Source: Mobula birostris
Lineage: Eukaryota
Length of the DNA: 64,000 nt
Direction of reading: 5' to 3'
Assembly: GCF_030028105.1 (NCBI RefSeq)
Contig: NC_092377.1
Span: forward strand, 94,246,865-94,310,864
A program made the translations under genes and the position numbers. Each line of letters begins with the position of its first letter. The first letter of the stretch is position 1. Positions 3,603 to 61,792 of this stretch are shown piece by piece. The notes below the pieces were generated by a model. That model made no database searches. It was not told where the DNA came from and saw only the letters and a program-made list of their open reading frames with translations.

Positions 3603-4843
3603 TATTTTATCATGTGCCTTCAAGTACCTCGAAACCGCATCCTTAATAATGGACTCCAACATCTTGCCAACTTCTGAACCCCTTTCAGAACCCTAGGGTG
3701 AAGTCCATCTGGTCTAGGTGATTATCTACATTCAGACCTTTCAGCAAGTACCTTCTCCTTAGTAATAGCGACTATACTCACTTCTGCCTCCTGACACTCT
3801 CGAATTTATGGTATATTGCTGGTGTCTTCCACAATGGAGACTGATGCAAAATACCTACAGTTCGTCCACCATTTCTCTGTTCCCCTTCATTTTTCCAGCA
3901 TCATTTCCCACTATTCCGACATTCACTCTTGACTCTCTTTTACTTTTTATATATCTGAAAAAAAACTTTGGTAACCTCTTTTATATTATTGGCTAGCTTA
4001 ACTTCCTATTTCATAATTTCTCTCCTTATTGTTTTTTAAGTTGCTTTCTGTTAGTTGCTATAAGCTTCCCAATCCTCTACCTTCCCATTAATTTTTGCTA
4101 TATCGTATGCTCTCTGTTTTGCTTTTATGCTGTCTTTGTCTTGCCTTGTCAGCCATGGTTGCCTCATCCTCCCTTTAGAATGCTGCTTCTTTGGAATGAA
4201 CTGATCCTATGCCTTCCATAATTGGTCCCAGGAACTGGAGCAACTGCTGCTATGCTATCATCCCTGCTACTATCCATTTCCAATCAACTTTGGCCAGCTC
4301 CTCTTTGTCTCTTTAGTTCCCTTTACTCTACTGATTTTAGTTTCTTCCTCTCAAGCTATAGGGTGAATTCTATCATCAGTGATTATGAGCACTGCCTCCT
4401 CAGGGTTCTTTTACTTTTAAGTTCCCAAATCAAATCTGGTACATTACACAACACCCAATCCAGAATTGCTTTTTTCCCAGTGGGTTTAACTATAATTTCC
4501 TTGGTGCGTGTGTGCTGTAGATTATAAGTGTGTAACTTGAGGGTATGAAAACTACAGAATCAGAAAAAAATTCAGACACAGAAGTACCTTGATACGGACA
4601 AGAAATGCAGGCTTGATTAAGACAGATGGGAAGGAAAGGAACAATGGGAAGAGGATCAGCTTGAACAAAAGACATTATGAAAGTAAGTGCTGAAGTATTA
4701 AGATAATCCAGAAAGGCTTGTTATGACAGGTTTATTGTCTCGGTTAGGATATGTCCTTGTTAAGCAACTAAGTGTCATTAAACAATTGGTTCGAACTCTT
4801 TTGCTGTAATTTAGTTCTATAATTTAGTTTTATTTCAGCTTAC

Positions 4844-6702: not shown

Positions 6703-6738
6703 AGTCCTGACGAAGGGTCTCGGCCTGAAACGTCGACT
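6703..6738 (+). ncRNA. Minimal type I hammerhead ribozyme (intact core)
   Basis: AGUC CUGACGA AGG-GUCUCGG-CCU GAAAC GUC GACU. Stem I is AGUC/GACU, with the CUGANGA and GAAA boxes, stem II AGG/CCU, palindromic ACGU as stem III (dimer-dependent) and a GUC cleavage triplet at 6732-6734. Confidence 0.8.
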
Positions 6739-6800
6739 GCGCCTCTTCCTACAGATGCTGCCTGGCCTGCTGCGTTCACCAGCAACTTTGATGTGTGTTG
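6703..6800 (+). mobile_element. ~98-nt Penelope-derived mini-element carrying a hammerhead ribozyme
   Basis: Nearly identical to the 3' terminus of the Penelope copies (52039-52136). Flanked by the direct repeat CTAGTCT (6696-6702 and 6801-6807). Confidence 0.85.
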
Positions 6801-7074
6801 CTAGTCTTTATACATTTCCATTTCCCCCAGCAGGAAGGATTTAGGGCCCTCTGCTTCTTTCTTGAGCATGGGCTCTTGCATGGGCTGCAACTACAACTGT
6901 CTTTTCATTGGCTACATGTAACCATCTTTATCTCAAACCTACTCTGGCACCTCTCCATAACTCTTTCACCATTATATTAACTGCATTGGTGCTGCTTCCT
7001 ATAATCATGTGAAACTCCTCAGTTTTATCACCTTTGCTACAGATTCATTTGGACCACTTTTGACACTAAGACTG

Positions 7075-10508: not shown

Positions 10509-10986
10509 GAGAATCCTATTCTACAAGAGGTGGAGGGAAGCTTTTCTAATTGGGAGTCTGTGACTAGTGGTGTAACTAAAGAATAGTGCGAGGACCTTTG
10601 TTGTTTGTGAGGCACATTGACAACTTGGATATGAATGCAAGAGGTATCAAGTCCGAGTTTAACAGCATGGAAATAGGTCCTTTGCCCCCATTACAACCCA
10701 GTGAGCTCCTCCCATCAGTCTGCATTTGGCCCATAGCATTTTAAACCACTCATCCATGTACTTACCTAGAGGGCTTTTAAATGTAAAGTGTGCTCCCCCC
10801 AACCACTATTGCTGGCAGCTCATTTCAAATATGCACCGCTCTTCGTGTTCAAAGTACTTTGATTTTTGAACGCTTTGTGTGAAGATGCTGCTCCTGATAT
10901 CCCTTTTAACTGTCTTGCATCTGATCTTAAAGAGATACCTTTTTTTTCAAGCATCCCCTCTGTGGGAAAATGACTATATTCCCGAA

Positions 10987-11177
10987 TCACAAATGAGAAA
11001 ATCTGTAGATGCTGGAAATTCAAGCAACACACAGAAAATGCTGCAGGAATTCAGCAGGCTAAGCGACATCTAGGGAAAAAAGTACAGTTGACACTTCAGC
11101 CCAAAACATCAACTGTACTTTTTTTTCCATAGATGCTGCCTGGCCTGCTGAGTTCCTCCAGTATTTTCTGTGTGTTC
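10987..11177. repeat. Head-to-head pair of Penelope 3'-end/hammerhead units forming an inverted repeat
   Basis: The left arm aacacacagaaaatgctg...gtacagttgac (from 11026) is complementary to the right arm atcaactgtac...cagtattttctgtgtgtt (to 11176). The centre is near 11100, inside the ribozyme. Confidence 0.8.
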
Positions 11178-11184
11178 CTGAGTA

Positions 11185-12240: not shown

Positions 12241-13267
12241 GGGATGATAAAGGAGAAACCTTTTCCAGAGTGGTTGATAATCTGGAACACTGACATTGGA
12301 AGTGATGCAGACAGATAGAATCACCATGTTTAAGAGGCATTTAGACTGACACACGAATAGGCAAGGCATATGGGAACTGATCAGCACTAATGTACTAATG
12401 TAACAGGCTGAATGGCCCATTCAGAAATGTTTGATCACACAGAACAAAATAGCCTAATGGATCAGCACCTTACCACAAAGTTAAACATTAATTCACTCCA
12501 TCATCTGCACACCATGATTATACCATCTACAAAATGTATTACAGTTACTTGCCTGGCCCACTCCAACATAATCTCCCAAATCAGGCATCTCATCTGCCAG
12601 GTGACAACTGCAATAAATCTTTGGCAACACCATCAACTACAGGTCCAGCTTCAAATGAATAGCATAAATGGCAGCGATGCTTCACTACCAGATGAACTCA
12701 ACGCCTTCTATGCCACCTTGAAAGGGAGAACACAACTACAGCTGTGAAGATCCCTGCTGCACCCGATGCCCCTGTAATCTCCGTCTCAGAGGCCGATGTT
12801 AAGCTGTCTTTAAAGAGAGTGAACCCTTGCAAGGCAGAAGGTCCAGATGGAGTACCTGGTAAGGCTCTGGAAACCTGTGCCAACCAACTAGTGGAAATAT
12901 TCAAGGACACTTTCAACCTATCACTGCTACGGGCGGAAGTTCCCACTTGCTTCAAAAAGGCAACAATTATATCAGTGCCTAAGAGGAATAACATGAGCTG
13001 CCTAAATGACTATCGCCCGGTAGCACTCACATTGACAGTGATGAAACGCTTTGAGAGGTTGGTCATGACTAGACTGAACTCCTGCCTCGCAAGGACCCGG
13101 ATCCATTACAATTTGCCTATCGCCACAATAGGTCAACGGCAGACGCAATCTCAATGGCTCCCCACACAGCTTTAGACCACCTGGACAACATAAACACCTA
13201 TGTCAGGAACACACATAAAAGTTGCTGGTGAACGCAGCAGTCAGGCAGCATCTATAGGAAGAGGTAC

Positions 13268-13303
13268 AGTTGACGTTTTGGGCCGAGACCCTTCATCAGG
13301 ACT
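13268..13303 (-). ncRNA. Hammerhead ribozyme of the Penelope 3' end, probably inactivated
   Basis: AGUCCUGAUGAAGGGUCUCGGCCCAAAACGUCAACU: the GAAA box has become AAAA and the stem I strand GACU has become AACU. Both changes are CpG-type transitions. Confidence 0.7.
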
Positions 13304-13507
13304 AACTGAAAGAAGAGCTAGTAAGAGATTTGAAAGTGGGAGGAGGAGGGGGAGATCCGAAATGATAGGAGAAGACAGGAGGGGGAGGGATGGAGCCAAG
13401 AGCTGGACAGGTGATTGGCAAAAGGGATATGAGAGGATCATGGGATGGGAGGCCCAGGGAGAAAGAAAGGTGTGTGGGGGGGGGGGGGGGAGGACAGCCC
13501 AGAGGAT

Positions 13508-13668
13508 NNNNNNNNNNNNNNNNNNNNNNNNNNNNNNNNNNNNNNNNNNNNNNNNNNNNNNNNNNNNNNNNNNNNNNNNNNNNNNNNNNNNNNNNNNNNN
13601 NNNNNNNNNNNNNNNNNNNNNNNNNNNNNNNNNNNNNNNNNNNNNNNNNNNNNNNNNNNNNNNNNNNN
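13508..13668. other. Assembly gap (161 N) inside the Penelope 3'UTR
   Basis: Run of N next to a poly-G and purine-rich tract. Confidence 1.
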
Positions 13669-16600
13669 TACGAGGGAGAGGTGGGGCATTAATGGAAGTT
13701 AGAGAAATCAATGTTCATGCCATCAGGTTGGAGGCTACCCAGACAGAATTATAAGGTGTTCCTCCAACCTGAGTGTGGCTTCATCTTTACAGTAGAGGAG
13801 ACTGTGGATAGACATATCAGAATAGGAATGGGATGTGGAATTAAAATGTGTGGCCACTGGGAGATCCTGCTTTCTCTGGCGGACAGAGCGTAGGTGTTCA
13901 GCGAAATGGTCTCCCAGTCTGTGTCGGGTCTCGCCAATATATAGGATGCCACATCGGGAGCACCAGACGCAGTATATCACCCCAGCCAACTAAGGGGTAA
14001 AGTGTCGCCTCATCTGGAAGGACTGTCTGGGGCCCTGAATGGTAGTGAGGGAGGAAGTGTAAGGGCGTGTGTAGCACTTGTTCCGCTTACAAGGATAAGT
14101 GCCGGGAGGGAGATCGGTGGGGAGGGATGGGGGGGGGGGGAAACGAATGGACAAGGGAGTTGCATAGGGAGCGATTCCTGCGGAAAGCAGGGGGGAGGGG
14201 AGGGAAAGAAAGATGTGCTTAGTGGTGGGATCCTGTTGGAAGTGGCAGAAGTTGTGGAGAATTATATGTTGGACCCGGAGGCTGGTGGGGTGGTAGGTGA
14301 GGACAAGGGGAACCCTATTTCTAGTGTGGTGGCAGGAGGATGGGGTGAGAGCAGATGTGCGTGAAATGGGAGAGATGCGTTTGAGAGCAGAGTTGATGGT
14401 GGAGGAAGGGAAGCCCCTTTCCTTAAAAAAGGAGGACATCTCCTTCGTCCTGAAATGAAAAGCCTCATCCTTAGAGCAGATGCGGCGGAGACGGAGGAAT
14501 TGCCAGAAGAGGATGGCATTTGCGAGAAGAGGAATAGCCCAGGTAGCTGTGAGAGTCCGTAGGCTTATAGTAGACATCAGTACCTTATCTCTGGAGACAG
14601 CTTGAGACAGAAAGATCTAGAAAGGGGAGTGAGGTGTCGGAAAAGGACCAGGTAAACTTGAGGGCAGGGTGAAAGTTGGAGGCAAAGTTAACGAAGTCAA
14701 TGAGCTCAGCATGCATGCGGGAAGCAGCGCCAATGCAGTCGTCGATGTAGCGAAGGAAAAGTGGGGGATAGATATCAGTATAGGTTTGGAACATGGATTG
14801 TCCCACAAAGCCAACAAAAAGGCAGGCATAGCAGGGACCCATATGGGTGCCCATGGCTACACCTTTAGATTGGAGGAAGTGGGAGGAGCGAAAGGAGAAA
14901 TTATTAACAGTAAGGACTAAATCCGCTAGACAGAGCAGAGTGGTGGTAGAGGGGAACTGGTTGGGTCTAGAATCCAAAAAGAAGCGGAGAGCTTTGAGAC
15001 CTTTCTGGTGGGGGATGGAAGTATATCGGGACTGGACATCCATGGTGGAAATAAAGCGGTGGGGGCCAGGGAACTTAAAATCATCAAAAAATTTCAAAGC
15101 GTGAGAAGCACGAACATATGTAGGAAGGGATTGACAAGGGGGGATAAAACAGTGTCGAGGTATGCAGAAATGAGTTCAGTGGGGCAGGAGCAAGCTGAGA
15201 CAATGGGTCTACCTGGACAGGCAGGTTTGTGGATCTTGGGTAGGAAGTAGAAACAGGAAGTGCGGGGTGTGGGAACTATAAGGTTGGTAGCAGTGGATGG
15301 GAGATCCCCTGAGCGGATAAAGCTGGTGATAGTGTGGGAGACAATGGCCTGGTGCTCCTTAGTGGGGTCATGATCAAGGGGTAGATAAGAGGAGGTATCC
15401 ACGAGTTGTCGCTGTGCCTCGGCAAGTTAGAGGTCAGTACGCCAGACTACAACAGCACCCCCCCTTATCGGCGGGTTTTATAGTAAGGTTAGGATTGGTG
15501 TGGAGGGAGTGGAGAGCAGAGCGTTCAGAAGGAGTGAGGTTGGAATGGGAACAAGGTGTGGTGAAGTCAAGACGGTTGATGTCCCGTCAGCAGTTAGGAT
15601 GCCAGTTAGGCAGTTAGGACCTATGTCAGGATGCTGTTTATCGACTCTAACTCAGCATTCATTACCATAATTCCCCAATCCTGATTGAGAAGTTGCAGAA
15701 CCTGGGCCTCTATACCTCCCTCTGCAATTGGATCCTCGACTTCCCAACTGGAAGACCACAATCTGTGCAGATTGGTGTTAACATATCCTCCTTGCTGACC
15801 AACACTGGCACACCTCAGGGGTGTGTGCTTAGCCCACTGCTTTACTCTCTATATACACACGACTATGTGGCTAGGCACAGCTCAAATACCATCTATAAAT
15901 TTGCTGATGATACAACCATTGTTGGTAGAATCTCAGGTGGTGATGAGAGGACATACAGGAGTGAGATATGCCAACTAGTGGAGTGGTGTCGCAGCAACAA
16001 CCTGGCACTCAACATCAGTAAGACAAAAGAGCTGATTGTGGACTTCAGGAAGGGCAATATGAAGGAACGCATACCAATCCTCATAGACGGATCAGAAGTA
16101 GAGAGAGTGAGCAGCTTCAAGCTCCTGGGTATCAAGATCTCTGAGGATCTAACCTCGTCCCAACATAATCTATGTAGTTATAAAGAAAACAAGACAGCGG
16201 CTATACTTCATTAGGAGTTTGAAGAGATTTGGCATGTCAACAAATACATTCAAAAGCTTCTATAGATGTACCGTGGAGAGCATTCTGACAGGCTGCATCA
16301 CTGAGTGGTATGGGGGCTACTGCACAGGACTGAAAGAAGCTGCAGAAGGTTGTAAATCTAGTCATCTCCATCTTGGGTACTAGCCTACAAAGTACCCAGG
16401 ATATTTTTAGGGAGCGGTGTCTCAGAAAGGCAGTGTTTATTATTAAGGACCTTCGGCACACAGGACATGCCCTTTTCTCACTGTTACCATCTGGTAGGAG
16501 GTACAGAAGCCTGCAGGCACACACTCAGCAATTCAGGAACAGCTTCTTCCCCTCTGCCATCCGATTCCTAAATGGACATTGAACCCTTGGGCACTACCTC

Positions 16601-32009: not shown

Positions 32010-33528
32010 CAGCTTTCCCCCGCCATCCGAAGGTAGAGCGTTCCTACGAAATGGTTTGTAAGCTGAAATGTCGTAAAGCGAAAAAGCAATGACCACTTAT
32101 TTATATGGGAAAAATTTGTGGGCATTTGCAGACCCAAAAATAACCTACCAAATCATGCCAAATAACACATAAAACCTAAAATAACAGTAACATATAGTAA
32201 AAGCAGGAATGATATGATAAATACACAGCCTATATAAAGTAGAATACTTTTCCACAATCATTACTGCACTGTTCTCCGTAGCGAAAATCTTGCGCAAGTA
32301 CCGCCGGCAGAAAATCTCACGCAAGCGCTGCCGGCAAAAACACAGCACAAGCGCTCTCCAGTAACCTTTAAGCTATGAAGCTGCCAAATCATACCAAATA
32401 ACACGTAAGAATACACAGCCTATATAAAGTCGAAATAATGTATGTACAGTGTATCACTTACCGGAATTGGTTCAGCGCCAAGCACACTGATGATGGTGTG
32501 TTAGACTGAGTCGTCGCAGGTTGGGTGATGCAGTGGCCCCCACCCTCCAGGCCGCCGACAGATACCGAACCACGAAGCATGCAGGGGTACAGCGGTAGCC
32601 AAGAGGCATCCAGCACATCTTTAAAAAAAAAAGCCAAAATAAACATGCTAATTAATTACGTATCGGGCAGCACCTAATTAATTAGCATGTTTATTTCGGC
32701 TTTTTTCTTAAAGATGTGCTGTGTGCCTCCCGGCTACCGCTGCATTCTCCGCGAATCACGGGGTGGTGGGACACTGGGGTGTCATCTCACTGTCTGTTTC
32801 CATTAGAGCAGGCAGCTCATCTTCTCCTATGACTGCCTGCCTCGATGTCGAAGGTCGAGGTTCGTCGTCTGCTGTGGCTGATGCAGAAGGCTTGCTTGAC
32901 TGCTGAGCCTCGCGCATTTTTCTATCATACAGTTCTTTGTAAGGACTCAAACCATCCTGCAAATATCCCCTAAACCTGCTTACCCTTTCAAAATTAAAGT
33001 TGTACTTTATCATTGCAGAAAAAACCTCACGCAGTTGCTTCACGTTCAGTTCCTGGACGACTTCACTTTTGGTCCGTTCACTACTGCATTCAGTTTCAAT
33101 TGTTATCCTTTCCTCTTCAGTTCTTGGTCATGGGATGCCAAAACCTCTTCAACATCATGTTCGTCAGCTTCCACAAGCCAAACTCACTTAGTCCTTACTT
33201 CCTTCACCACGATCGAAACGCTTAATTATGTCTAGTTTTACGCTTTGTGACATCCTTACAAGCTCTTTTAGGCTTTTCCAATACCTTAGAACTCATCTTG
33301 CAAACGGCTGCTCACAGGCACGTGTTTAAGCAATGCCGGCGAGAATGCTGTTCCGAATCCGGGGGAGAGCAGCTGCTCGGGGCGCGCAGCGCACTGCCTT
33401 TTATCGCGCGCTGATGTTTTTTCGTAACAGTGAAAACACCTTCTGAAAGCAAAAACAGGGTACTAATGTAGGTCTTTCGCAACAGTGAGGTTTCGTAAAG
33501 CAAACGTTCGAAAAGCGGGGGACACCTG
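32010..33528 (-). mobile_element. Tigger/pogo-family non-autonomous deletion derivative
   Basis: TIRs CAGCTTTCCCCCGCCATCCGAAGGT and (rc) CAGGTGTCCCCCGCTTTTCGAACGT with TA flanks (32008-9, 33529-30). The minus strand keeps the N-terminal MSSKVLEKPKRA..V / IKRFDRGE (CENP-B-like HTH start) and the C-terminal DDVEEVLASH...PYKELYDRKMREAQQ; the DDE domain is deleted. Confidence 0.88.
32590..32742. repeat. Long inverted repeat (~69-bp arms, 16-nt loop) inside the Tigger element
   Basis: cagcggtagcc..cagcacatcttt..aaataaacatgctaattaatta / taattaattagcatgtttattt..aaagatgtgctg..ggctaccgctg. Confidence 0.9.
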
Positions 33529-49639: not shown

Positions 49640-52600
49640 TACATACGAACATAAGAAATAGGAGGAGTAGGCCATCTGCCCCGTTGAGCCTGCTTCACCA
49701 TTCAACAAGACCATGGCTGACATGACCATGGACTCATCTCCACCTACCTGCCTTTTCCCCATAAACCTTAATTCCCTTGCTTTGCAAAAATCTATCCAAC
49801 CTTGTCTTAAATATTTATTGAGGTAGCCTCCACTGCTTCATTGGACAAAGAATTCCACAGATTCACCTCTCTTTGGAAAAAGCAGCTCCTCATTTCTGTC
49901 CTAAATCTACTCCCCCCAAATCTTGAGGCTATGCCCCCTACTTCTAATCTCATCTACCAGTGGAAACAACTTTACTGCCTCTATCTTATCTACCCCTTTC
50001 ATAATTTTATATGTTTCTATAAGATCTCCTCTCATCCTTCTGAATTCCAGGGAGTACAGTCCCAAGCGACTCAACCTGTCCTCATAATCTAATCTCCTCA
50101 TCTCTGGAATCAACCCAGTGAATCTCTCCTGTACTGCCTCCAAAGCCAGTATACCTTTCCTCAAGTAATGAGCCCAGAACTGCACGCAGTACTCCAGGTG
50201 TGGCCTCACCAGTACCCTGTGCAGTTGCAGCATAACCTCCCTGCTCTTAAATTCAATCCCTCTAGCAATGAAGACCAACATTCCATTTGCCTTGATAGCC
50301 TGCTGCATCTGCAAACCAACCTTCTGTGATTCATGCACAAGCACTCCCAAGACCTTCTGCACAGCAGCATGCTGTAATCTCTTACCATCTAAATAATAAT
50401 CTGATCTTCCATTTTCCCTTCTAAAGTGGATGACTTTGCATTTACCAACATTGTACTCCATCTATGTCTCTCTATAACCTATCTATATCTCTCTGTAGAC
50501 ACATTGTATCCTCCACACAATTTGCTTTTCCACTCAATTTAGCGTCATCAGCAAACTACACTACATTCGGTCCCCTCTTCCAGATCGTTTATACGTATCG
50601 TGAACAATTGTGGGCCCAGCACCGACCCCTGCGTCACACCATTCACCACTGATTGCCAACCAAGGGAACACCCATGTATCCCAACTCTCTGCTTTCTATT
50701 GGTTAACCAATTCTCTACCATGCTAATACATCACCTCCAACTCTATGCATCGTTATCTCATGGATAACTCTTATGTGGCACCTTATGGAATGCCTTCTGG
50801 AAATCCAAGTAAATAACGTCCATCTGTTCCCCTCTACCCACTGTGCTTGTTATATCCTCAAAGAACTCCAGTAAGTTTGTCAAACAGGGCCTGCGTTTGC
50901 TGAATCCATGCTGCAATTGCCTGATGGATCCATTTATTTCCAGATGTCTCGTTATTTCTCCCTTAATGAGAGTTTCAAGCATCTTCCCAACTACAGATGT
51001 TAAACTAATTGGCCAATAGTTACCTGCCTTTTGCCTACATCCTTTTTTTGAACAGTGGTGTGACATTTGCATTCTTCCAATCTGCTGGGACCTGCCCAGA
51101 GTACAGAGAATTTTGGTAAATTATCATCAAAGCCTCAACTATAATCTCTGTCATTTCTTTCAGTACCCTGGGATGCATTCCATCAGGACCAAGGGACTTG
51201 TCTAACTTTAGGCCCCTAAGTTTGTTCAGCACTACTTCTTCAGTGATAGCTACTGTAGAGGTCCTCACCTCCCAACGCATCCATATCATTTCTCTTCTGC
51301 ATTTTAAATGTGTCCTCCACTGTGGAATAGTCATTCAAAGCCTCAGCCATTTCCTCATTACCCAATTCCCCCTTCTCGTCCTCCAAGGGATCTACGTTCA
51401 CTTTGGCTACCCTTTTCTGCTTTATATAAATTATAAAAACTTTTACTATCCGTTTTTATATTTTGTACTAGTTTATTTGCATAATCTATCTTCCCTTTCT
51501 TTATTGCTTGCTTAGTGGTCTTATGTTGCTTTTGTCCGCTCTGTCCGCCAGAGAAAGTAGGATCTCCCAGTGGCCACACATTTTAATTCCACATCCCATT
51601 CCCATTCTGATATGTCTATCCACAGCCTCCTCTACTGTAAAGATGAAGCCACACTCAGGTTGGGGGAACAACACCTTATATTCCGTCTGGGTCGCCTCCA
51701 ACCTGATGGCATGAACATTGACTTCTCTAACTTCCGCTAGTGCCCCACCTCCCCTTGTACCCCATCCGTTATTTATTTATATACACACACATTCTTTCTC
51801 TCTCTCCTTTTTCTCCCTCTGTCCCTCTGACTATACCCCTTGCCCATCCTCTATTTCTTCTCCCCCCTCCCCCTTTTCCTTCTCCCTGGGCCTCCTGTCC
51901 CATGATCCTCTCATATCCCTTTTGCCAATCACCTGTCCAGCTCTTGGCTCCATCCCTCCCCCTCCTGTCTTATCCTATCATTTCAGATCTCCCCCCTCCC
52001 TCCCACTTTCAAATCTCTTACTAGCCCTTCCTTCAGTTAGTCCTGATGAAAGGTCTCGGCCCGAAACATCGACTGTACCTCTTCCTATAGATGCTGTCTG
52101 GCCTGCTGCGTTCACCAGCAACTTTGATGTGTGTTGCTTGAATTTCCAGCATCTGCAGAATTCCTCGTGTTTATGTTGCTTTTTAAAGTTTACCGCAACT
52201 TTCCAGTTGCCCAATATTCCTGGCAACTTTGTACACACAATCTTTTAGTTTGATGCTTCCCTTTATTTCCTTAGTTATCTCTGGCTGGCTCTCCCCACCC
52301 TTACTGTCCTTGCTTTTAACTGGAATATAGTTTTGTTGAGCACTGTGAAAAATCTCTCTGAAAGTCTTCCACTGTTCTTCAACCATCCCACCATATAGAC
52401 TGTGTTCCCAGTCTATCCAACTCCTCCCTCATCCTGTTGTAGTCTCCCTTGTTTAGGCATAATACACTCCATTTGTATGAGAAAATCAATCATTTAAAAA
52501 ATCATTTTTTAAAAATCATTAAAAATAAATAAATAAATGTTTTTTTTAAAGGGATCAATCTTTCCAAGAGGATCCCCAACTACAGATTGCTAATTTTATC

Positions 52601-55692: not shown

Positions 55693-55820
55693 AAAACGCA
55701 AACACGAGGAAATCTGAAGATGCTGGAAATTCAAGCAACACACACAAAATGCTGGTAGAACGCAGGAGGCCAGGCAGCATCTATAGAAAGAGGTACAGTC
55801 AACGTTTCAGGCCAAGACCT
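55693..55820 (-). mobile_element. Penelope 3'-end unit truncated within the hammerhead
   Basis: Reverse complement of ..ggtcttggcctgaaacgttgactgtacctctttctatagatgctgcctggcc..cagcatcttcagatttcctcgtgtttg. Confidence 0.8.
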
Positions 55821-57629: not shown

Positions 57630-57678
57630 TCCCCCCACCATTTTTGTTTTCCATTACCCCATTATTACCACTCTAGCA

Positions 57679-57778
57679 ACACACATCAAAGTTGCTGGTG
57701 AACGCAGCAGGCCAGGCAGCATCTCCAGGAAGAGGTACAGTCGACGTTTCAGGCCGAGACCCTTCATCAGGACTAGCA
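57679..57778 (-). mobile_element. 100-nt Penelope-derived hammerhead mini-element with a 15-bp TSD
   Basis: TSD ATTACCACTCTAGCA at 57664-57678 and 57779-57793. The insert is nearly identical to 6703-6800. Confidence 0.9.
57739..57774 (-). ncRNA. Minimal type I hammerhead ribozyme (intact core), sense to the SOS pre-mRNA
   Basis: Minus strand AGUC CUGAUGA AGG-GUCUCGG-CCU GAAAC GUC GACU; all conserved core nucleotides are present. Confidence 0.82.
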
Positions 57779-58334
57779 ATTACCACTCTAGCATAATTTT
57801 CCAGTGGTACAATATCCACTCTTGCTTTTCTTTTACTCCTTATATATCTGAAAAAAATTGCGTTCACTTTTATATTATTGGCTAGATTATCCTCATATTT
57901 CATCTTTTCTCCCATTGTTTTGTTTTTAGTTGTCTTCTGTTCATTTTTAAAGCGTCTCATTCCTCCAACTTTGTACTATTTTTGTTATTTTGTATGCCTT
58001 CCCTTCTGCTTTTATGCTGTCTTTAACTTCCCTTGTCAACTTTTAGAATGCTCTGCATTGGGATGAACCAATCCTGCGTCTTCCATATTAATCCCAGAAA
58101 CTCCAGCCATTGCTTCTCTACGTCATCACTGCTAGCATCCTCTTCCAATCTACATTGACCAGCTCCTCTAAACCTTGCTCTCTTTTCACTGCTGCTATCA
58201 GAAAGGAGGTTCAGGAGCCTTATGTCCCCCACCAGCGTGGATAACTTTACCTTCCTCAATACTGAACTGTTTCCACAACCTGCGGACTCACTTTTGAGGA
58301 CTCTACAACCCAGGCTCTCAATATTTTTATTTAT

Positions 58335-59672: not shown

Positions 59673-61792
59673 CAGTGGTGCCAGAAAGTTTGTGAACCCT
59701 TTAGAAATTTCTCTGTTTATGCATAAATATGACCTAAAATGTGATCAGATCTTCACACAAGTCCTAAAACAAAATAAAGAGAATGCAATTAAATAAATAA
59801 CACAAAAACTTTACTTTTTCATTTATTTATTGAGAAAAATGATCTAATATTACATGTATTTGTTGGAAAAAGTACGTGAACCTTTGCTTTCAGTATCCAG
59901 TGTGACCCCCTTGTACAGCAATAACTTCAGCAAAACATTTCTGGTAACTGTTGATCAGTCCTGCACATCGACTTGGAGGAGCTTTAGGCCATTACTCCTT
60001 TCAAAACTGCTTTAACTCTGGGATCACAAGCAAGAGAAAATCTGCAGATGCTGGAAATCCAAGCAACACACACCAAATGCTGGCGGAAGTCAGCAGGCCA
60101 GGCAGCATCTATGGAAAAAAGTAGAGTCTACGCTTTGGCAGGACTGGAGAAAAAATGATGAGTAAATTTAAAAGGTAGGGGGAGGGGAGAGAGAAACACA
60201 AGGTGATAGGTGAAACTGGGAGGGGAAGGGATGAAGTAAAGAGCTGGGAAGTTGATTGGTGAAAGAGATACAGGACTGGAGAAAGGAGAGCCTGATAGGA
60301 GAGGACAGAAGACCATGGAAGAAAGAAAAGGGGAGGAGCACCAGAGGGAGGCGATGGGCAGGCAACGAGGGAGAAGAGGATGGGAAATGGTAAGGCGGGG
60401 GTGGAATTACAGGGAAGTCAAGAAATTGATGTTCATGCCATCAGGTTGGAGGCTACCCAGACGGAACACAAGATATTATTCCTCCAACCTGAGTGTGGCC
60501 TTATCAAGACAGTAGAAGAGGCTATGGATTGACACATCGGAATGGGAATGGGTGGAATTAAAATGGGTGGCCACTGCCAAGAAGTTCAATTCTGGACTCA
60601 TCTCTCATCTGTCCACAGAACATTCTTCCAATAGCCATCTGGCATATCTAGTGGTCTTCAGCAAACTTAGACGGGCAATGTTCTTCGTGGAGAGTAGTGG
60701 CTTTCTCCTGGGATGTTAGTGGGCTTCTTGGCATGAACTGCTTGCTTCAGGTCCTTCCATAACATTTCTATAGGATTAAGGACAGGACTTTGACTCGGCC
60801 ATTCCAAAATATGAAATTTCTTCTACTTTAACCATTCAATGGTAGACAGAATTGCGTGTTTAGCGTCTTGCTGCACGACCCACTTTCTCTTGAGCTTCAG
60901 TAAACAGACAGATACTCTGACATTTTCAAGTAGAATTTGCTGGTACATTACAAAATTCATAGTTCCATCAGTGATAGCAAGCCATCCTGGTCCTGAGGCA
61001 GCGAAGCATGCGTCAACCATGACACTGTCACCATGGTTCATACATGGGATGAGATCCTTATGCTGGAATGTAGTGTTTGCTTTTTGCCAAATATAATGCT
61101 TCTCATTTAAGTCAAAAAGTTCTACTTTGGATTCATCTGTCCACAAACCATTGTAGTTCAGTGTTTGCCTGATGCAAGAGAGGCCTGTACCTCCTTAAAT
61201 GTTACCCAGGGGCCTTGCTCTTAGAGTGATTTTTGTTGGCCAATTACTCCTGGCGAGAGTAACTATAGTGTTGAATATCATCCATTTGTACACCACCTGC
61301 CTGACTGTGAATTGGTGGAGCCCAAACTCTTTAGAAATGGTTTTGTATCCTTTTCCAGCCTGGTGACCATCAACAACCCTTTTTCTGAGGTCCTCAGAAA
61401 TCAATGATCAAGGCATGACACACTTCTAAAAACCTGCGTGGTGAAGATCAGACTTTGATAGCAAAGACTCAGGTTTATGTTCTTTAAATAGGGCAGGACC
61501 TCCCGCACTCTTACCTGATTGTCATGCCATTGATTTAAACACCCAACTCTAATTTCCCCTCTAAATGAACTGATAATCCTAAAGGTTCACATACTTTTCC
61601 AACAAATCCATGTAATATTGAAACATTTTTCTCAATTAAAAAATGAACAAGTATATTGTTATTGTGTTATTTACTTCATTGGGTTCTCTTTATCTAGCTT
61701 TAGGATGTGTGAAGATCTGATCACATTTTAGGTCATATTTTTGCAGAAATAGAGAAAATTCTGAAGGGTTCACAAAATTTCTAGCATCATTG
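59673..61792 (-). mobile_element. Tc1/mariner DNA transposon, defective and internally rearranged
   Basis: TIRs cagtggtgccagaaagtttgtgaaccct ... agggttcacaaaatttctagcatcattg with TA flanks (59671-2, 61793-4). Minus-strand transposase pieces are ISEDLRKRVVDGHQAGKGYKTISKEF and WTDESKVELF...QQDAKH. Confidence 0.93.
60025..60577 (-). mobile_element. Penelope 3' fragment inserted in the Tc1, with the hammerhead internally deleted
   Basis: Homologous to 13209-13860 (gatgttcatgccatcaggttggaggctacccagac). The ribozyme is reduced to agtcctgccaaagcgtagact. Confidence 0.85.

Follow-up and report, generated by a model that had tools for sequence, protein, structure and literature searches.

Two inserts of about 100 nucleotides, each carrying a hammerhead motif and sharing both boundaries, lie in a 64,000-nt stretch of the Mobula birostris genome (contig NC_092377.1, positions 94,246,865 to 94,310,864; hereafter the window), and they raise the question of whether such copies represent a discrete mobile ribozyme or fragments of a larger element whose ends are set reproducibly. 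A sequence-only reading of the window had favoured a ~100-nt non-autonomous ribozyme element. We compared the inserts with each other, with the remainder of the window and with the surrounding genome of 4.0 Gb. Positions within the repeat are numbered from the A of AGTCC as position 0, which is window position 6703 on the plus strand and 57774 on the minus strand. The two inserts with target site duplications (TSDs) of their own proved real; each is 100 nt long, they differ from one another at 5 sites, and their parts are as follows.

6703..6802, plus strand: copy A, assigned to a Penelope-like pLTR, from position 0 to reverse transcriptase (RT) start site 1 (+100); identical to the 3' ends of long copies such as L019
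6696..6702 and 6801-6807, plus strand: 5' and 3' copies of the 7-bp TSD of copy A, with a 2-nt overlap with the element 3' end
57675..57774, minus strand: copy B, by sequence comparison another subfamily haplotype of the same fragment
57779..57793, minus strand: 5' copy of the 15-bp TSD of copy B
57664..57678, minus strand: 3' copy of this TSD, overlapping the last 4 nt of the element
57775..57778, minus strand: 4 extra bases between the TSD and position 0 of copy B, matching the TSD start and the element 3' end
57675..57696, minus strand: 3' hairpin of copy B, located where RT start site 1 lies (for comparison, PMC11167929 describes an RT start at a stem-loop)

The small 3' hairpin that had been claimed is present, and so is the TTGCT ahead of copy B. 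The circular or tandem template that the latter had been taken to indicate is unsupported, as the feature occurs in 1 of 36 copies with a non-native leader, and that one is copy B itself. The TSD ends with the T that opens TTGCT and begins with the 6 nt TGCTAG, so that a re-copied TSD and an element 3' end are indistinguishable at copy B. The 4 extra bases are likely a templated insertion from the target, and a target-derived leader resembling that of copy B is also found in L197. Copy B lies in or adjoins an old repeat (57787-58169) that occurs a second time at 3894-4304 (72%).

Both inserts had been said to contain an intact minimal type I hammerhead, and this was borne out with a descriptor written after Cervera and De la Pena (2014, PMC4209133; here as for the other papers cited, our statements refer to the parts available). 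The descriptor has two matches in the whole window, namely copies A and B, with a mean of 0.0 in 200 shuffles, and helices I and II appear in the local minimum-energy folds.

6703..6738, plus strand: minimal type I hammerhead of copy A (descriptor and local fold)
6703-6706/6735-6738, plus strand: helix I of copy A
6707-6713, plus strand: core of copy A, then an extra A and helix II (6715-6718/6723-6726)
Downstream in the same motif, plus strand: GAAA and the palindromic CG, with the predicted cut after 6734
57739..57774, minus strand: minimal hammerhead of copy B, with the predicted cut between 57743 and 57742

The core, a helix I of 4-5 bp, the extra base before helix II and the palindromic 15.2-16.2 positions are all present. 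The hammerheads of metazoan Penelope-like elements (PMC4209133) are alike in their short helix I, the extra base before helix II, the lack of a helix III loop, the palindromic 15.2-16.2 and their occurrence mostly as single truncated copies; they differ in a conserved G10.1-C11.1 pair, which is G-U in copies A and B; other haplotypes do have G-C, as do some of the tandem units on contig C24 considered below. A search against Rfam gave no hammerhead match at E<=1. In the folds the core can mispair with the cleavage triplet, and because of this and of the G-U closing helix II, self-cleavage of the predicted hammerheads is not assured. The fold of the whole 100-mer is not more stable than those of shuffled sequences (z +0.4 to +1.6).

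The suspicion of Penelope machinery behind the inserts was well founded: the same 100-mer ends longer copies, and the longest one in the window carries broken RT and GIY-YIG frames. Three longer copies, overlooked in the sequence-only reading, lie within the window.

13205..15588, minus strand: long broken parent copy ending at site 1, with an RT fragment (14588-15175), GIY-YIG (13738-13989), 3' UTR, hammerhead and a masked N stretch
51537..52172, plus strand: 5'-truncated copy with the endonuclease end, hammerhead and 34-nt tail (site 2)
55700..55819, minus strand: short copy starting at +13, with tail

Broken-frame pieces of the first of these gave Pfam scores for RVT_1 (E=3e-6) and GIY-YIG (E=3e-4) that were both just under the cut-offs; the order, RT followed by a C-terminal GIY-YIG, is that of EN+ Penelope-like elements, and the copy ends in the same 100-mer. 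In an upstream walk, three of five new N-terminal loci (L216, L218 and L220) showed a tandem layout, in the order endonuclease end, pyrimidine-rich 3' UTR, hammerhead, 34-nt tail and ORF, with the ORF starting at +170 to +173. Such partial tandems, with a pLTR upstream of the ORF, are represented by 186 copies that continue from the hammerhead in the direction of the ORF. The linker between RT and endonuclease contains a C-x4-C-x2-C motif in L216 and L218; a zinc-finger-like Cys motif at this place marks the Neptune clade and is common to Nematis as well (PMC8557442). The tandem pLTR layout, as described in that paper, and the Cys motif indicate a Neptune-type Penelope-like element. That the 100-mer is the pLTR/5' UTR of this element is highly probable, a grading that applies to Penelope origin alone. 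Published EN+ elements of the Neptune clade (PMC8557442; PMC3846280) are alike in their RT and C-terminal GIY-YIG, Cys-rich linker, pLTR-forming partial tandems, inverted 5'-truncated partners, optional 34-nt tail, pLTR hammerhead and solo pLTR-like copies. Inverted 5'-truncated partner copies also occur here, as does an optional tail of 30-40 nt: of 84 sampled copies, 20 have their 3' end within 99-103 and 61 within 125-134. The 33-mer at the element's 3' end has 32,432 exact occurrences genome-wide, giving at least 32,432 copies, and copies A and B are ordinary members of this very large repeat family, which presumably resembles repeats of other cartilaginous fish. Older subfamilies are represented in the window by a head-to-head inverted pair (10986-11179) and by a minus-strand copy with a partly deleted hammerhead (60028-60576). 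An additional repeat at 32590-32742, a palindromic element of ~150 bp that is 84% self-inverted and has weak Rfam miRNA matches below gathering scores, is probably MITE-like.

The shared 5' boundary was examined in a sample of 84 copies selected on the 3' 33-mer alone, which represent 84 of 100 places listed in 80 stretches from the first 7.2 Mb of contig C1; halves of inverted pairs were counted separately, and rows reaching the edge of a stretch or resuming after an indel were scored as long. The sequence-only reading named the lack of a peak at AGTCC among the results that would make these ordinary Penelope truncations; a peak exists, with 17 of the 84 5' ends at -1 to +3, 16 at +4 to +20, 9 at -55 to -2, 6 at +21 to +59 and 36 longer. 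Density in the hotspot is 5.5% per nt against 0.24% in flanking bins, an excess of ~20-fold (Poisson P ~1e-17), and the ends form a cliff with 7 at 0, 1 at -1 and 0 at -2 to -5, and on the other side they thin out gradually as far as +20. Of the 17 hotspot copies, 11 form one half of an inverted pair and 4 are simple copies with tail. Genome-wide, a non-native base stands at -1 in 3,989 of 49,151 copies, compared with 588 at -6; inspection of 16 single C-led loci gave 13 true ends and 3 point changes. Leaders with four non-native bases were counted at position 0 (1,319), at the cleavage site at +32 (350) and, as a control, at +44 (78); correction for base composition changes these counts to ~4,800, ~980 and ~250. 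A hand count attributed 59 of 100 listed matches at +32 to joins in inverted orientation via helix I, to deletions of the core or to deletions of 1 nt, and with these discounted the ends at +32 are ~1.6 times the control. As a genomic proxy for self-cleavage, the excess of ends at +32 is thus only 1.6- to 4-fold over one control position. The 5'-end peak is not at the cut site. A monomer cut by the ribozyme was rejected as the source of the ends, with 0 of 84 ends at +31 to +33 and those 59 listed matches otherwise explained. Older subfamilies, surveyed by eye in 700 kb of evenly spaced sequence without a subfamily reference, also show many starts at -1 to +3. The available parts of the Neptune papers (PMC8557442; PMC3846280) describe frequent 5' truncation with no preferred site and mention no sharp excess at helix I.

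Whether copies are joined to partners, at positions that vary, or in tandem, as on contigs C24 and C35, the side of the join at position 0 stays fixed. Among 100 listed copies starting at 0, 15 join at +16 through a 2-nt join and ~10 through the helix I complement (L200 and L187, for example). Two loci on contig C1, L187 (5.63 Mb) and L188 (7.78 Mb), are head-to-head pairs in which both halves start at 0; their 13-nt spacers are near-identical and their flanks different, and the whole inverted structure was apparently copied in one piece. In 23 of the 100 listed matches at +32, the core seems to have been lost through a recurrent deletion of 26 nt via 3-nt microhomology.

The reading that we prefer, at a probability of roughly 0.55, is that copies A and B are 5'-truncated Penelope copies extending from site 1 to the helix I hotspot, and that an RNA 5' end lies at the hotspot. 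The proposed route would start from the 100-mer in the pLTR/5' UTR, where it is observed ahead of an ORF start at ~+170. The element protein would nick the target and prime internally in the RNA, a mechanism taken from PMC11167929 and based here on the 3' ends at +99-103 and +125-134. As counted above, cDNAs stop at 0 far oftener than at the cleavage site or elsewhere. This stop would correspond to the RNA 5' end, produced either by a start site at the Inr-like TT/AGTCC or by trimming up to the protein-bound ribozyme; we take the sequence at position 0 to be Inr-like. The cDNA end would then be joined to the target via 1-6 nt of microhomology to give a simple insert with TSD, or else might be joined to a second cDNA to give an inverted pair, and a jump to another template might give the rare tandem units. 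The hotspot would thus likely exist because some template RNAs begin at 0, so that the enzyme runs off there. An RNA end is suggested by the shape of the cliff, by position 0 being the fixed side of varied joins, by the tandem junctions that land on 0 and the Inr-like sequence there, and by the lack of structure ahead of the enzyme together with an unstable cDNA helix (+1.0 kcal/mol for the helix I hairpin). Other observations count against it. Raw counts at -1 (G 1,414 vs A 919) had seemed to support a cap-type G and were discarded as mostly partner-templated joins; in a hand count of the 100 listed 0-starts, with recurrent joins of this kind dropped, there is no G excess (G 17, A 23 and C 21 of 61), as background predicts. 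Of the ORF-continuing copies, found with a pattern that excludes C at -7, 96 of 100 listed (186 in all) read through 0 in the upstream pLTR, so the principal 5' end of full-length templates lies elsewhere, and a start of all full-length RNAs at 0 is ruled out. In Drosophila Penelope the start site precedes by 46 nt a 75-nt intron (PMC2377424), and it is the end of this intron that maps to helix I (PMC4209133); that start is not at helix I but further upstream, which likewise weighs against an RNA end at the hotspot.

Several other explanations were weighed against this one. The inserts could constitute a discrete ~100-nt ribozyme element, a retrozyme monomer or ribozyme-SINE with a lineage of its own and a circular or tandem RNA template. 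Identical boundaries do recur, in the window copies and in L013, L117 and L178; copy B has a 7-nt repeat at both ends, one apparent +99 to +1 head-to-tail join is found on contig C4, and tandem 112-nt units are present on C24. Yet an exact 3'-to-5' junction has 6 matches, 0 of them between two 100-mers, and no 100-mer array was found; looser patterns bring the head-to-tail joins to 19 (12 + 7) against ~49,000 copies. The join on C4 (185600521-185600546, minus strand) is a lone near-exact case and the nearest to a 100-nt tandem. Over 96 nt, at least 12 long copies match copy A without a single difference, while copies A and B differ at 5 sites, and copy B is nearest to other long copies. There are no private sites, and the short-short distance (4.9) is not below the short-long distance (4.7; 36 short and 80 long copies, the long set being enriched for the haplotype of copy A by the search used). 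The choice of 3' site is independent of the 5' end (5/17 vs 15/67, Fisher P=0.54), simple 0-to-100 inserts make up 2 of 84 copies, most hotspot copies are halves of inverted pairs, and a ribozyme-cut monomer is expected to start at +32 rather than 0. With haplotypes shared with long copies, independent ends and neither private sites nor fixed ends of a SINE-like lineage, the discrete element is largely refuted and we consider it improbable. Ordinary random 5' truncation, with a boundary shared by chance and CTAG microhomology, is a further explanation. CTAG is present in both window targets and other ends scatter from -55 to +59, but the ~20-fold excess at 0 holds in the sample and genome-wide, also in targets without CTAG; the endpoint counts refute this explanation, to which we assign next to no probability.

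Penelope origin would be retained if the hotspot arose at the level of cDNA, either through RT stalling or falling off as it leaves the hammerhead, folded or protein-bound at that moment, for the pyrimidine tract, or through trimming of the cDNA to helix I. Stops at -1/0 also occur on the second passage in 4 of the 100 listed ORF-continuing copies; this, the joins through the helix I complement, the exact coincidence of position 0 with the end that helix I would have in DNA, and the missing cap G all speak for such an origin. Structure would nevertheless block RT at its 3' side (+24 to +36), a region that holds 1 of the 84 ends, the cDNA helix on its own is unstable, and joins through helix I are a minority, the 2-nt join at +16 being as common. 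We regard a cDNA-level cause as possible, though somewhat unlikely. A 3' splice site is a further candidate, with short copies derived from spliced or splice-arrested RNA: the pyrimidine tract, a branch-point-like motif and an AG just upstream of or at 0-1 are all in the sequence, and helix I is where the intron of Drosophila Penelope ends (PMC4209133). The 36 leaders share no common upstream exon, however, and the cDNAs retain the AG, with TSDs that end in AG or G serving as microhomology in L013, L028, L122, L126 and L178, which leaves splicing very improbable.

The RNA-end reading allows for rare tandem units, and one family of these was found.

Contig C24, 16.0 and 49.9-53.6 Mb (L221-L225): 112-nt tandem family, up to six units

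Each unit runs from 0 to +110, adds one extra G and returns to 0. Exact junctions of this form number 12; the 8 loci that hold them are all on contig C24, and one locus has 5 in a row. Five of the 8 loci were inspected and comprise one trimer, three dimers and one array that spans all of the 481 nt retrieved. The four with a visible end have differing 3' flanks and 3' ends, and the first unit runs into normal 3' UTR; this pattern would be expected if a source that already held an internal duplication had inserted several times independently. That all loci lie on one contig may be due to linkage with a rare source, to local insertion or to duplication at the DNA level. A dimer of the 112-nt unit folds with its hammerhead halves paired (z=-2.0). 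Other tandem joins were also seen: an independent C24-like head-to-tail join (+108, extra G, 0) at C35:35258378-35258414 on the minus strand, and a single insertion with a 14-bp TSD at L226:45-510 (C27:18.74 Mb), in which an inverted half is combined with tandem units of period 146 and two C24-like junctions, produced by rolling-circle copying or later duplication.

A recent preprint (bioRxiv 10.64898/2026.07.22.740005) requires of a retrozyme at least two units in tandem, with a hammerhead in every unit, and proposes that retrozymes derive from pLTRs. Copies A and B are single inserts with TSDs and lack the 112-nt junction. The C24 arrays consist of such tandem units and fit both the definition and the pLTR-origin proposal; at 112 nt the unit is shorter than the 150-450 bp units of PMC7229834 and inside the 51-972 bp range of the preprint. 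Non-LTR retrozymes are tandem with a canonical motif, whereas copies A and B are single with a minimal motif and the C24 family comprises only 8 loci. Judged by sequence, the C24 arrays are a candidate nascent non-LTR retrozyme. We further suggest, as a conjecture that we doubt more than we believe, that the 5' edge of the hammerhead rather than the cleavage site sets the 5' ends of Penelope templates, that run-off and template jumping would generate tandem units, and that the C24 array may be a retrozyme at birth, which could self-cleave as a dimer into 112-nt circles containing an RT start site and be reverse-transcribed by rolling circle.

A further system for comparison is PAc, a Poseidon element of Anolis (Frangieh 2024, PMC11167929), which likewise has a tail delimited by two internal RT starts, RT starts at a stem-loop downstream of the hammerhead, and priming of both strands. 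Uncleaved RNA is the main template of PAc, and here there is no strong peak at +32; the PAc ORF starts inside the hammerhead, in contrast to ~+170, after the tail, in the present element. The available main text leaves the 5' ends of PAc copies untreated. Neither a helix I 5'-end hotspot nor the C24 family was found in the literature searched, with subscription papers largely outside its scope; the ends of genomic copies are mapped in supplementary figure S2 of PMC11167929, which may bear on the former.

The hammerhead is dispensable for Penelope insertion in vitro (PMC11167929). In the present genome, thousands of copies show cDNAs ending at the base that opens helix I, ~20 times as often as at a control position and several-fold more often than at the cut site. 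The hotspot and the C24 tandem family, both absent from the literature searched, are worth a specialist's look. The helix I stop provides a precise position for RNA end mapping and in vitro reverse transcription, and the C24 arrays offer a small, young test case for the pLTR origin of animal retrozymes.
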